DNA from: Pseudomonadota bacterium | Lineage (GTDB): Bacteria; Pseudomonadota; Gammaproteobacteria; Steroidobacterales; Steroidobacteraceae | DNA length: 58,319 nucleotides | NCBI GenBank assembly: GCA_018241545.1 | Contig: JAFEDP010000001.1 | Location: 1 to 58,319, forward strand | Direction: 5' to 3' | Shown here: positions 13,304 through 20,061 of the stretch, one piece after another | How positions within the stretch are numbered: position 1 is the stretch's first letter | How the letters are laid out: each line of letters starts with the position of its first letter | The notes under the pieces: model-generated | Seen by the model: only the letters and a program-made list of their open reading frames with translations | The model's database searches: none | What the model was told of the DNA's origin: nothing | Made by a program: the position numbers and the translations under genes

Positions 13304-13966
13304 CTACGGCCGCCTCGTCACGCGGCGCCGCGGCAGAGCCGGACCGAGAAAGTGCATCAGGAAGCCGGTCGCGGCGAGCTTGGCCAGACGTACGTACGCG
13401 GGCGTCAGCCGCCCATACTCCAGCATCGATGCCGTAAATGCGGTGTCGACGATTTCGGTGGCGACGTAGGCGACCCGTTCCTTGTCAGCGAACCTTGGCA
13501 CGATGAACAGTTCCTCGGCCAGGCGCAGCGCGAATCCCGCCCGGGCACGATCGGCGTCCCGATCCATCCGCTTGATCTGGTGCGGGGTCTCGCCGCCGAT
13601 CGCAAGTTTCGCGCCGACCGGGTGCAGGCGGTGATGACGGGCGGCGCGATCGATGAGGCACTCGACGATCGCCTGCCAGGTGCGCTGGTCGCGCGGCCGC
13701 AGTGGCCGCATCAGAGTCGCGTCCATCGTCACGCGGTGCTGTTCCAGCAGCGCCCGGTAGATGGATTCCATGTCCGGGTAGAAGTGCTGCGCAGAGCTGG
13801 ACGGGACGCCCGCTCGGGAGCAGACGGCGGCGAATGTCACGCGCGACAGGGCGTGCTCGGCGACCAGGGAACGAGCGGCCGCCAGCAGGGCCTCGCGACG
13901 TCGATCGCCGCGGCGCTGGGTGCGGCGCACCAACGGTTCGGCCTTCTGAATCCTGACTCGGGTCAT
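13304..13966 (-). CDS. TetR-family transcriptional regulator
   Basis: Start MTRVRIQKAEP at 13966, inside track ORF 13304..14257. N-terminal HTH FAAVCSRAGVPSSSAQHFYPDMESIY. Divergent from the receptor operon. Confidence 0.85.
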   Translation of the reverse strand: MTRVRIQKAEPLVRRTQRRGDRRREALLAAARSLVAEHALSRVTFAAVCSRAGVPSSSAQHFYPDMESIYRALLEQHRVTMDATLMRPLRPRDQRTWQAIVECLIDRAARHHRLHPVGAKLAIGGETPHQIKRMDRDADRARAGFALRLAEELFIVPRFADKERVAYVATEIVDTAFTASMLEYGRLTPAYVRLAKLAATGFLMHFLGPALPRRRVTRRP

Positions 13967-14164
13967 CGGAGCCCCTGGGTGGCACCAAGAGTCTAGCGAT
14001 GCCTGCAAGGGCTGCAAATCGGCGTGCGACGGCGGGCGGCGCGACCGGCCTGCCCGCGTCGGAAACTCGGTAGTTACCGGGTCTTTGATGACAATCCCAC
14101 GGCGCCTAGGTATAACTGCGGGCAATGCGCCGTGCAATCTCTGCCACGGCGCTGCCGCAAAAGA

Positions 14165-14172
14165 GGGGGGGG
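14165..14172. repeat. Homopolymeric G8 tract in the TetR/receptor intergenic region
   Basis: Read directly: aagaGGGGGGGGc, 58 nt upstream of the receptor ATG at 14230. Confidence 0.9.
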
Positions 14173-14229
14173 CGGCCCGCGCGACGCGGGGGACCCCGAC
14201 AGTCTGGCCGTGAGACGGGCAGCTACCGC

Positions 14230-17353: not shown

Positions 17354-18504
17354 TGGCGAAGCACCACGGGCTGGCATTCGCGATCGCGCTGATGGGTGCA
17401 GCGCCGCTGGCCGCCGTCGCGGCACCGGGGTTCTCCCTCACGAACCAGTGTCCTGCCAGCTTCGAGAAGCAGGACGGTCGCTGCCGCCTGCGCACCCCGT
17501 ACGACGACTACGCCTCGCTCACCGGCGCCGGCGTGGGCGGACTCAAGACCGGGCTGCCGCCGGTTCGCGATGGCTTCACGCCGCACGAGATCGACCTTGG
17601 ACGCCTGTTGTTCTTCGACCCGGCGCTCTCGGTCAACGGGCGCGTGGCCTGCGCGACCTGCCACAGCCCCCGTCACGGCTTCGCCGACGCCCGGCCCCGC
17701 AGCCACGGGGCGCTGGGCGACGAGGTGTCGCGCAACGCGCCCAGCCTCTGGAACGTCGCCTTCCTGCGGCGGTTCTTCTGGGACGGCCGCGCCCAGTCCC
17801 TCGAGGAGCAGGTGCAGGGGCCACTGTATGGACGCCGGGAGATGGCGACCTCGCCGGCGCGGCTCGTCGCCACGCTGAATGCCATTCCGGATTACCGGCG
17901 ACTCTTCTCACAGACGTTCGCCGACGCGGCCGGAGGCATCCGCACCGAGCACGTGTACCGCGCACTGGCGGCCTTCGAGAGCTCGCTGGTATCGCTCAAC
18001 AGCCGCTATGACCTGTACGCGCACGGTATCAGCAGCGCTCTGACGCGCGAGGAGCTCGAGGGCCTCAATGTGTTCCGCTCGTTCGTCGCGCGCTGCGCCG
18101 AGTGCCATACGCCGCCGCTCTTCACCAACCAGCAGATTGCGGTCATCGGCATGCCTGATCCTGCCGGCCGACCGTTCGACGCCGGCGCCGGCGCGCTGGA
18201 CGGCGAACCGATGCGACGCGGCGGCTTCAAGGTGCCCAGCCTGCGCAACGTGGCGCTGACCGGCCCCTACGGCCATGCCGGGCAGTTTGCGACGCTGCGC
18301 GAGACCGTCGCCTTCTATACCGGCGGTCGGGGACACGCCGTCCCACGCGGCGAACACCTGCGCCTGCATTGGCACATCTGGGAGCCCAAACTCTCGGAAC
18401 AGGAACTCGACCGTCTGGTCGACTTCCTTCGATCACTAACCGACGAATCCTTCCGCCCGGAGACGCCGCGTCGCGTCCCCTCCGGGCGGCCCGTACCCGA
18501 TTGA
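17350..18504 (+). CDS. Dihaem cytochrome c peroxidase / MauG-family enzyme
   Basis: 384 aa with a signal peptide. [52 protein letters not shown] and [19 protein letters not shown] are classic CCP/MauG blocks. The ATG at 17353 forms TGATG with the upstream stop. Confidence 0.9.
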   Translation: [384 protein letters not shown]

Positions 18505-18522
18505 CGCCGCCTGGGAGCACCC

Positions 18523-20061
18523 ATGAACACCAAGGGATTCATCAGCCTGATAGTCGTCGCCGCCATCGCCGCCGCCGGCGGCTATCTCTACGCCCAGCGC
18601 GCCGCGGTGCCCGTGGCGGCGACGGCCGCGCGGTCGGCGGCCGCCGAACTCAGCAGCGCGCGCAGCCCGGCAGCCGCGGGCGCGCCCGCCTCGCTGACGG
18701 CAGGCGGCACCGGCCAGGTGATCGCGGTCAAGCCCGGCGACTCCATCCAGGCGGCGGTCGCCCGCGCCCAGCCCGGCGACACGGTGCAGGTTCTGCCGGG
18801 GACCTATCGGGAGACCGTCTACATCGACAAGGACAATGTCGCGCTCATCGGCGTCGTCCATGGCGGCGACTGGCCCACCCTCGACGGCGAGGGCAAGCGC
18901 AACGATGCGGTGCTCTACTCCGGCAATGGCATCCGCGTCGAGAACCTGCACATCGTGAACTTCAAGGGCAACGCGATCATGGGGCAGGCGGGCAACAACT
19001 TCGTGATCCGCCACAACTGGATCGCCAATGCCGGCGTCTACGGGATCTTTCCCGAGTTCGCGCAGAACGGGCTCATCGAGTACAACACCCTGACCGGCAT
19101 CGAGGATGCGGCAATCTACGTCGGGATGTCAGACAACATCCACGTCGCGCACAACGAGGTGTTCGGCAACGTGGCCGGAATCGAGATCGAGAACTCGCGC
19201 CACGCCATCGTCGAGCACAACCTCGCCTATGACAATGCCGGGGGCATACTGGCGTTCATCACGCCCGGCCTGCCGATCAAGACCACGTTCGACGTCATCA
19301 TTCGCAACAACTTCGTCGTCGCCAACAACCATCGAAATTTCGGCGCCCCGGGGTCGATCGTGTCCGGAATCCCGAGCGGCACCGGCATCATCATCATGGC
19401 CGCCGACGACGTGTTCATCGAGAACAACGTCGTGCGCGACAACAAGAACGCCGGCATCATCGTCGCCGACCACAAGTCGTTCGCGAACATCACGCCGGAT
19501 CCGGAGTCCGACCCGAATCCCGATCGCGTATCAGTGCTCTGGAACCTGTTTGCCCACAACGGCTACGAGCCAATCAAGGAGATCAAGGTGCTGATGGCGG
19601 CCGCGCTGACGACCGAGGGCCCGGACCTCGTCGCGGTGGGTGGAGGCAGCGGCAGCTGCGTGGCCGACAAAAGCGCGCTCAAGTCCCTCGGCATCGGCAG
19701 CTGGGCTTCCGGGTGCGCGCGCGCGACGACGGCGGACGTGTCGACCTATCTCCTCGAGCACCCGGCGAAGGCCCGGGTGATGAACACCGAGGACCGCGGC
19801 AAGCTGATCTACTCGTCGGTGTGCGCCGGCTGCCATGCCTACAACGTGCGCATGATCGGACCGCCGACCCAGGTGATCCAGGCCATGTATGCCGGCAACC
19901 CGCAGGGGATCGCCGACTACATTGCCAACCCGGTGAAGAAGCGCGAGGACTTCCCGGCCATGCCACCGCAGGGACACCTCAGCCCGGACCTGCGCCTGGC
20001 CGTAGCCAAGTACATGCTGGCGGTCACCCAGGGAAAGCCGCGAGCTGCGGCGACGCCGTAG
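18523..20061 (+). CDS. Right-handed parallel beta-helix repeat protein (NosD/CASH-like) with C-terminal monohaem cytochrome c domain
   Basis: 512 aa. N-terminal hydrophobic anchor ISLIVVAAIAAAGGYLY. GDSIQAAVARAQPGDTVQVLPGTYRETV, followed by repeated beta-helix turns (IRHNWIANAGVYGI, IEYNTLTGIEDAAIYV, VAHNEVFGNVAGIEIE, VEHNLAYDNAGGIL, IENNVVRDNKNAGIIV). C-terminal CAGCH haem motif. Confidence 0.8.
   Translation: MNTKGFISLIVVAAIAAAGGYLYAQRAAVPVAATAARSAAAELSSARSPAAAGAPASLTAGGTGQVIAVKPGDSIQAAVARAQPGDTVQVLPGTYRETVYIDKDNVALIGVVHGGDWPTLDGEGKRNDAVLYSGNGIRVENLHIVNFKGNAIMGQAGNNFVIRHNWIANAGVYGIFPEFAQNGLIEYNTLTGIEDAAIYVGMSDNIHVAHNEVFGNVAGIEIENSRHAIVEHNLAYDNAGGILAFITPGLPIKTTFDVIIRNNFVVANNHRNFGAPGSIVSGIPSGTGIIIMAADDVFIENNVVRDNKNAGIIVADHKSFANITPDPESDPNPDRVSVLWNLFAHNGYEPIKEIKVLMAAALTTEGPDLVAVGGGSGSCVADKSALKSLGIGSWASGCARATTADVSTYLLEHPAKARVMNTEDRGKLIYSSVCAGCHAYNVRMIGPPTQVIQAMYAGNPQGIADYIANPVKKREDFPAMPPQGHLSPDLRLAVAKYMLAVTQGKPRAAATP

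Follow-up and report, generated by a model that had tools for sequence, protein, structure and literature searches.

The 58-kb stretch of Steroidobacteraceae DNA analysed here (contig JAFEDP010000001.1, referred to below as the window) carries a repressor-controlled operon in which a TonB-dependent receptor is followed by a dihaem cytochrome c4-like protein, a dihaem enzyme resembling MauG and MbnH, and a beta-helix protein of family TIGR03805 which ends in a monohaem cytochrome c domain. The last two form an uncharacterised pair: the component families are known, and the pairing of such helices with dihaem proteins has been catalogued with no function attached. We propose, tentatively and with slightly more doubt than conviction, that this pair is the stable core of a periplasmic haem-dependent oxidising machine. 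The proposal is carried by the strict adjacency of the two genes over distant bacterial groups and by the repeated fusion of their products, which argue for a stable haem/beta-helix enzyme and not for a chance neighbourhood.

Gene calls were taken from the open reading frame list of the window and its translations, in which the five genes described by a first-pass annotation, made from the letters alone, were all recovered with their coordinates and strands. They are listed below, followed by the haem-binding motifs.

13304..13966, minus strand: TetR-family repressor gene, 220 amino acids (aa), divergent from the operon
14251..16725, plus strand: TonB-dependent receptor, 824 aa from TTG 14251 (831 aa if ATG 14230)
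16712..17353, plus strand: dihaem cytochrome c4-like protein, 213 aa
17353..18504, plus strand: MauG/MbnH-like dihaem enzyme, 383 aa
18523..20061, plus strand: TIGR03805 beta-helix protein with C-terminal monohaem cytochrome c, 512 aa
16826-16840, plus strand: haem motif CIPCH, c4-like gene
17120-17134, plus strand: haem motif CSACH, c4-like gene
17650-17664, plus strand: haem motif CATCH, MauG-like gene
18094-18108, plus strand: haem motif CAECH, MauG-like gene
19822-19836, plus strand: haem motif CAGCH, beta-helix/cytochrome gene

The junctions are as first described: the receptor and c4-like genes overlap by 14 nt (16712-16725), the c4-like and MauG-like genes meet in a TGATG (stop at 17351-17353, ATG at 17353), and 18 nt (18505-18522) separate the MauG-like from the beta-helix gene. 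Since the genes overlap or abut, a single transcript is indicated, and in the synteny comparison the gene order exceeds chance by far. All five CxxCH motifs lie at the places noted. Pfam and NCBIfam domain calls exceed the curated thresholds for all five proteins, and each of the three haem proteins has an N-terminal signal or anchor sequence, from which it follows that the five c-type haems face the periplasm; the gene identities, the count of five haems and the membrane or periplasmic topology given by the first-pass annotation therefore stand.

The MauG-like/beta-helix pair across genomes

A scan of species-representative genomes confirmed at least 594 of them as carrying relatives; at the 90% identity level, 2566 of the best 8000 candidates were homologues (E <= 0.001). 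The taxa among the matches listed are Steroidobacteraceae-like Gammaproteobacteria, Pseudomonas, Alteromonadales, Halieaceae, Cellvibrionaceae, Oxalobacteraceae, Rhodocyclaceae, Bacteroidota and a myxobacterium. For the analysis of synteny 80 loci were kept, 75 of which contained sufficient sequence to judge the pair.

In all of these 75 informative loci the MauG-like gene is the immediate 5' neighbour of the beta-helix/cytochrome gene, at gaps of 9 to 380 nt, and the pairing spans Gamma- and Betaproteobacteria, Bacteroidota and Myxococcota. The pair is preceded by a c4-like gene in 66 of 71 loci; those missing it are four Bacteroidota or Bacteroidota-like loci (one Flavobacteriaceae, two Flavobacteriales, one Cyclobacteriaceae) and one Cellvibrionaceae. 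A TonB receptor is found within about 3 kb in roughly 40 of the 80 loci. The first-pass annotation had described the four genes as one operon; the conserved entity is the pair, usually with the c4-like gene, and not the four-gene unit, the receptor being present in about half of the loci. No other conserved neighbour was found in the 80 loci beyond this triad, the receptors and lineage-specific regulators.

At least four arrangements of the receptor were distinguished: upstream on the same strand (the type of the window), immediately downstream, divergent upstream, and upstream with an AraC-type regulator in between. Of the receptor classes, only the first two, A and B, are related to each other, with a normalised score of 0.31; the values for C and D (0.15-0.18) lie at background. 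A single orthologous receptor family was ruled out, as classes C and D are no closer than background receptors.

Fusions were searched for among 3851 relatives of the helix protein (E <= 0.001, library of 50%-identity representatives), several of the long ones being scanned against NCBIfam and Pfam. Eight clusters (P0260, P0263, P0277, P0278, P0281, P0308, P0320 and P0322) fuse a MauG-like domain to a TIGR03805 helix. Each begins with a membrane anchor, continues with a MauG-like dihaem domain and ends in the helix, so that the domain order is the gene order of the window; they share a 'VPSGLP' joint, which is also the end of the free-standing enzyme here, and an FY(x)GG motif containing the Tyr discussed below. 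On metagenome contigs the fusion genes stand alone among unrelated housekeeping genes, with neither receptor nor c4, which argues that haem and helix are a self-sufficient unit. Two such stand-alone genes, each encoding anchor, MauG-like domain and TIGR03805 helix, are:

L082, 7935-10160
L086, 7812-10142

Their neighbours encode a PBP1-type synthase, an aldose epimerase, Ada, BamA, an aminotransferase and a BamB-like protein.

Six or seven further relatives have the helix first and then a dihaem cytochrome of the SO2930 family (TIGR03806), which suggests that the helix recurrently needs a haem partner. That SO2930 proteins could be cryptic relatives of MauG was ruled out (hhalign probability 1.5%). 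The first-pass annotation had referred to function-unknown pairs of beta-helix proteins and dihaem cytochromes, and rightly so: they are TIGR03805 and TIGR03806 of NCBIfam, of which fused forms exist. Like these pairs, the locus has a helix which passes TIGR03805 and shares the invariant Tyr/Asp/Tyr/Glu with the SO2930-fused helices; unlike them, it provides haem through a MauG-like enzyme, a c4 and a monohaem domain built into the helix protein. TIGR03806 matched none of the five locus proteins, and the locus is not itself a TIGR03805/TIGR03806 pair.

The haem proteins

The dihaem enzyme falls in the CCP_MauG superfamily (PF03150, 175 bits against a cut-off of 25.6) and has two CxxCH motifs. 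Whether the ligand position of its six-coordinate haem carries Tyr or Met was a point raised by the first-pass annotation, and the residue is Tyr, as in MauG and MbnH. Tyr322 (18316-18) aligns exactly, with full posterior confidence, with Tyr294 of MauG and with the Tyr of MbnH. The surrounding stretch is gapless against MauG residues 257-296 and includes the motif (L/V)TGPY.H.G.F..LR....FY. Tyr294 is the axial ligand of the MauG haem and sets MauG apart from the His/Met peroxidases. Tyr322 is invariant in 50 of 50 diverse family members, down to about 55% identity, and the inter-haem Trp143, located in FFWDGR, is kept in 47 of them; the predicted ligand set, a Tyr ligand with an inter-haem Trp, is thus that of MauG. 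The Met ligand position of Shewanella CcpA aligns with Tyr322, so that the His/Met arrangement of the canonical peroxidases is missing, and the invariant Tyr is at odds with a canonical peroxidase. Over the whole sequence the nearest structures are the bacterial peroxidases 3o5c and 1iqc (E ~1e-42); the C-terminal haem domain is closest to MbnH (6e1c) and MauG, ahead of the peroxidases. Judged by its sequence, the enzyme is MauG/MbnH-like and not a peroxidase. It scores below the MauG equivalog TIGR03791 (177.9 bits, cut-off 443.85) and below MbnH TIGR04039, its best NCBIfam match (213.3 bits, cut-off 362.85), which indicates a separate subfamily. Two invariant features without counterpart in MauG or the peroxidases are a hairpin near the N-terminus (Cys33...Cys44) and, at residues 325-345, a GRGHAVP...LHWH insert with three invariant His. 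Either could be a docking or metal site. The HWH of the second is located as follows:

18367-75, plus strand: family-specific HWH insert, MauG-like enzyme

The beta-helix protein meets the TIGR03805 model with 183.3 bits (cut-off 141.5) over residues 75-361, and Pfam recognises Beta_helix/NosD and Cytochrome_CBB3 domains. Domain search and structural modelling agree with the first-pass description of a membrane-anchored parallel beta-helix with a C-terminal CAGCH cytochrome. The protein consists of a hydrophobic N-terminal helix (residues 3-26), a disordered linker, about ten right-handed beta-helix coils (residues ~65-345), a small domain with near-invariant Cys379 and Cys398, and a class-I cytochrome c domain with CAGCH and Met480. 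In its AlphaFold model the pLDDT averages 78 and exceeds 85 for most of the helix. When the helix model was compared with the Protein Data Bank (PDB) using Foldseek, only generic matches of the CASH type were obtained, with a TM-score of about 0.4 (AlgE4 epimerase, DFA-IIIase, PL6 lyases), and a PDB sequence search with the whole protein matched the cytochrome domain only, with no solved structure for the helix. Across three architectures Tyr173, Pro177, Asp195, Tyr199, Glu223 and Asn224 are invariant and Glu221 is nearly so; the other TIGR03805 architectures do not retain Met202 or His227. As for Trp, no position of the helix protein is conserved (W117 in 36 of 59 sequences, W166 in 21 of 59), and a Trp-derived cofactor was ruled out on this ground.

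With NosD the protein shares a CASH-type right-handed periplasmic beta-helix, and the Pfam NosD model gives 48.6 bits. A NosD identity was ruled out, TIGR04247 reaching 60.9 bits against a cut-off of 300 and over residues 75-233 only. Unlike a nos locus, the window has no nosZ, nosF, nosY or nosL among its Pfam-scanned neighbours, and no neighbour family is widely shared in the 80 loci beyond the triad and the receptors. Domain, neighbour and literature checks gave no nos context and no known pathway, in line with the first-pass annotation, which could not assign the operon to one.

The c4-like protein has a signal peptide and two Cytochrom_C domains (Pfam), with CIPCH/Met90 and CSACH/Met188; each class-I domain thus has a CxxCH and a distal Met, as is characteristic of cytochrome c4. 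Its best PDB match is the Pseudomonas stutzeri cytochrome c4 (1etp), which covers both domains (residues 30-200, E 2.6e-17). A metagenome protein of 562 aa, P0191, is a tetrahaem fusion of a c4-like and a MauG-like protein in which the junction takes the place of the MauG-like signal peptide, and this fusion points to c4 as the redox partner of the dihaem protein.

Possible functions

Long-range oxidation of proteins by a bis-Fe(IV) species has its textbook example in the dihaem enzymes of the MauG type. MauG, encoded in the mau cluster, acts on pre-methylamine dehydrogenase in the biogenesis of tryptophan tryptophylquinone (TTQ). MbnH, encoded in Mbn operons, has a MauG-like high-valent state, forms kynurenine in MbnP and makes the copper site of that protein. 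BthA and many other MauG-family clusters remain orphans. In MauG it is the combination of a His/Tyr haem and a bridging Trp which supports the bis-Fe(IV) oxidant.

In the oxidising machine that we propose, one core partner would be the MauG/MbnH-type dihaem protein, with one haem His/Tyr-ligated and a Trp bridging the haems, and the other would be the TIGR03805 beta-helix protein, held at the inner membrane by its N-terminal helix. The face formed by Tyr173, Asp195, Tyr199, Glu221 and Glu223 would be the likely site of substrate binding or reaction, and the C-terminal monohaem domain a likely electron relay to the dihaem partner. The c4-like cytochrome would link the MauG-like protein to the respiratory chain, either supplying electrons for an O2-driven activation or removing them. 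In this lineage the three genes would be co-transcribed behind the receptor, from one promoter under a TetR operator; given this arrangement, the substrate and inducer here are probably an imported small molecule. Gene order, domain identities, the position of the Tyr ligand, the conservation of residues and operator, and the fusions are observed; what we infer is that the two proteins form a complex, which way the electrons run, that bis-Fe(IV) chemistry takes place, which face of the helix is active and what kind of substrate is used. The earlier idea of import followed by periplasmic oxidation is a reasonable account of this lineage but does not define the system as a whole, as the receptor is variable and fusions occur without one.

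Several points weigh against this proposal. Approximately 40% of the loci have no TonB receptor within 10 kb, and since the receptors are not orthologous and some loci have none, no common imported substrate is implied. The helix shows no recognisable cofactor site. The AlphaFold model of the MauG-like protein is unusable (pLDDT 49.5, too poor for haem pockets), for which reason the residue-level alignment to MauG and MbnH was used. The MauG-family enzymes with a known substrate in the literature surveyed, MauG and MbnH, both act on proteins, which speaks for the maturase reading discussed below. We know of no redox beta-helix enzyme which could serve as a precedent, the Foldseek matches being epimerases and lyases, and the literature search found no paper on the MauG-like/helix partnership, on the fusions, or on SO2930-type pairs beyond gene lists.

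A wider generalisation, possible and in our opinion rather doubtful, is that TIGR03805 helices with a haem partner, MauG-like in the window and SO2930-type elsewhere, form a new periplasmic oxidative class, in which a bis-Fe(IV) dihaem centre would either act from a distance on a non-protein substrate in the groove of the helix or build a new Tyr-derived cofactor on the helix scaffold. If true, this would be a new job for MauG-type chemistry, known so far only for maturing two kinds of client protein. Only two physiological MauG-type substrates are known, methylamine dehydrogenase and MbnP; the locus gives a third and very widespread class of partner, for which the fusion proteins argue in favour of a permanent complex, and the function-unknown TIGR03805/TIGR03806 pairs are thereby linked to a recognisable chemistry. 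The existence of cultured carriers makes the question tractable: Sapientia aquatica, Solimicrobium silvestre, Permianibacter, Pseudoalteromonas pernae, Simiduia aestuariiviva, Halioglobus japonicus and Aliikangiella coralliicola.

Because MauG-type enzymes of known function modify a client protein, the classical reading of the locus would be that of a maturase and its client. The dihaem enzyme would oxidise the beta-helix protein once, for example to a Tyr quinone or cross-link at Tyr173/Tyr199, and the matured protein would be a quino-haemoprotein dehydrogenase passing electrons through its own haem to c4 and a terminal oxidase. The two Tyr-ligated relatives whose substrates are named in the literature surveyed do modify a protein, the adjacency of the genes is strict, the helix protein has its own haem and the invariant Tyr173 and Tyr199, and c4 is a known donor to cbb3 oxidases (structure 8snh contains c4 with cbb3). 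Other likenesses to MauG are the CCP_MauG dihaem c protein itself, the aligned Tyr ligand, the inter-haem Trp and a dedicated partner encoded next to the enzyme. The differences are that the locus enzyme has the HWH insert and the N-terminal Cys pair, that its partner is a beta-helix/cytochrome protein without a conserved Trp, and that no mau genes lie near the locus (the neighbours are urease, a nitrilase-type hydrolase, a PLP-dependent enzyme and a flavin amine oxidase; PLP, pyridoxal phosphate). The lack of a conserved Trp excludes TTQ, cysteine tryptophylquinone (CTQ) and kynurenine chemistry as a family trait. Moreover, an enzyme permanently fused to a single-turnover client, as would be the case in eight clusters, is hard to rationalise, and the c4/MauG-like fusion places c4 beside the supposed maturase and not beside the supposed dehydrogenase. 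We consider a maturase with its client unlikely and place it second, on account of the missing Trp and the permanent fusions.

The MbnH system also suggests, by analogy with MbnT/MbnP/MbnH and with NosD, a role in copper or iron acquisition: the receptor would import a metal chelate, the NosD-like helix would be a periplasmic metal carrier prepared or served by the MbnH-like enzyme, and the haems would reduce or oxidise the metal for its release. The resemblance to MbnH-MbnP(-MbnT) lies in the conserved Tyr, in a dihaem enzyme encoded beside a periplasmic partner, and in a frequent proximity to a TonB-dependent transporter. MbnH is moreover the best NCBIfam match of the dihaem enzyme and is known to make the copper site of MbnP, the helix is above the cut-off of the Pfam NosD model, whose description is that of a periplasmic copper-binding protein, the plug of the receptor is similar to those of siderophore receptors, and the invariant Tyr/Tyr/Asp/Glu together with the subfamily-specific His227 could form a hard-metal site. 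However, the partner is not MbnP and has neither a conserved Trp nor a WxW, there is no copper context and no copper-handling neighbour, and the regulators are of TetR and AraC types and not metal sensors. The scores for MbnH (213 against 363) and NosD (61 against 300) are far under the curated cut-offs, Met202 and His227 are lost in the other TIGR03805 architectures, and the receptor is absent from many loci and from the fused forms. Metal acquisition therefore appears improbable.

Ordinary peroxide removal, in which c4 would feed a dihaem peroxidase and the beta-helix protein would be unrelated or an extra electron donor, is very improbable: the fold family, the closest whole-sequence structures (3o5c and 1iqc, above) and the c-type donor encoded alongside, a small cytochrome beside a peroxidase being the classical arrangement, are in its favour, but an invariant Tyr, in a His/Tyr pair, stands where canonical peroxidases have their defining Met ligand, the C-terminal domain is nearer to MbnH and MauG, the obligatory helix partner with its strict adjacency and fusion is left unexplained, and TetR or AraC control and linkage to a receptor are unexpected for detoxification.

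Control region, receptor and surroundings

The repressor protein matches TetR_N (PF00440, 25.6 bits, cut-off 24) and TetR_C_22 (33.4 bits, cut-off 26.4). Orthologues with 56-75% identity occupy the same position in 10 close loci and were found nowhere else among the loci compared, so that TetR is restricted to the closest relatives. The TetR-receptor spacers of the window and ten close relatives (11 spacers) were aligned, and the following elements were identified:

14063..14084, no strand: operator-like 22-bp inverted repeat AAACTCGG-N6-CCGGGTCT, a conserved block of the 11-spacer alignment
14088..14116, plus strand: putative sigma-70 promoter, -35 ATGACA at 14088-93, 17-nt spacer, -10 TATAAC at 14111-16
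14216..14236, plus strand: leader hairpin just 5' of the Shine-Dalgarno sequence, containing the non-conserved ATG 14230

The consensus of the relatives for the operator-like repeat is AAACTCGG-N6-CCGAGTTT, from which the window copy departs by 2 mismatches in the right arm. The 22-bp palindrome has a sole match in the 58-kb window, 0.10 being expected by chance. Its core ACTCGG-N6-CCGAGT occurs in the TetR-receptor spacer, or in its expected place, in 11 related loci, and the exact core was found in none of 150 other loci (~2 Mb). It is single in 10 of the 11 upstream-receptor loci and double in L008, and a TetR gene accompanies it in 10 of 11, the contig of L003 starting at the site. The two copies of L008 lie in the TetR-receptor spacer at 5500-5517 and 5584-5601, 84 nt apart.

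The palindrome CGGTAgtTACCG (14068-14079) pointed out by the first-pass annotation is present; it is the window-specific centre of the 22-bp repeat, which is the real operator-like unit. A 5+5 palindrome alone is at chance level, about 0.5 being expected per fixed spacer in 263 nt by our own estimate. The -35-like element TTGATG proposed at first has to be replaced by the conserved -35 (G/A)TGACA, at 14088-14093 in the window, where 3 nt (14085-14087) separate it from the palindrome. Both promoter hexamers are conserved in the 11 loci, the alignment showing (G/A)TGACA and, 17 nt on, GTATAA. A consensus promoter scan gave no site in the promoter region; its rule accepts only -10 hexamers that end in T, and TATAAC does not. 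The promoter call is based on conservation.

Thus the presumed TetR control gains support from a conserved operator-like palindrome abutting a conserved promoter, together with the N-terminal helix-turn-helix (HTH) and the C-terminal ligand domain of the protein, all at the level of the sequence. We regard this as good in-silico evidence for a TetR operator which would occlude the operon promoter.

In Alteromonadales and Cellvibrionaceae the place of TetR is taken by a polytopic membrane protein of ~360 aa which carries an AraC-type HTH at its C-terminus and is encoded directly 5' of c4; in the Alteromonadales loci it sits between the TonB receptor and c4. Examples of this regulator are:

L052, 6742-7800
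L038, 6847-7941
L079, 6764-7873

The leader hairpin at 14216-14236 comprises 8 pairs, of which two show compensatory G-C to A-U changes (RNAalifold, 5 close relatives); its conservation, seen in 5 sequences only, is suggestive, and the hairpin, with ATG 14230 inside it, could affect translation or mRNA stability. An Rfam scan of 13000-21000 at E <= 1 gave no match, hence no known riboswitch in the receptor leader. The 5' leader also contains, at 14165-14197, the G8 run already noted (14165-14172) followed by an imperfect inverted repeat GGGGCGGCCCGCG/CGCGGGGGACCCC, and a second predicted leader hairpin is only loosely conserved among relatives.

The receptor probably starts at TTG 14251 and not at ATG 14230, the start first given: a conserved Shine-Dalgarno GGGGG precedes the TTG, ATG 14230 is not conserved and lies inside the conserved hairpin, and a 94%-identical relative is annotated with the corresponding 824-aa receptor. 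The protein has a Plug domain (PF07715, 70.5 bits) and a barrel (PF00593, 115.8 bits), both above cut-off, and a TonB-box-like EVVVTA near its N-terminus, as is characteristic of TonB-dependent receptors. The plug resembles those of siderophore receptors. No substrate class can be assigned, as PDB matches are limited to the plug; all NCBIfam scores of the receptor are far under the cut-offs.

The neighbours of the operon in the window (the urease cluster, the nitrilase-type hydrolase, the PLP-dependent enzyme and the flavin amine oxidase) look unrelated to it. The urease cluster is upstream, at 7564-11083, with ureC at 7564-9267 followed by ureE, ureF and ureG, which a comparison with L081 identified; the 94%-identical relative has the cluster as well. 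At the other side, the PLP-dependent enzyme and the flavin amine oxidase (20115-23001, minus strand) converge on the end of the operon. They are kept beside it in L001, L029 and L081 and not elsewhere, which probably reflects lineage-specific synteny. Further upstream, a second, unrelated TonB-dependent receptor (2652-4841) is followed by a gene of the histone-deacetylase family, acetylpolyamine amidohydrolase-like (4938-5966). Downstream, 23019-26403 encodes a DUF4382/DUF5666 protein of 645 aa and then a PETase-like alpha/beta hydrolase of 472 aa, both of which are also found in L081.

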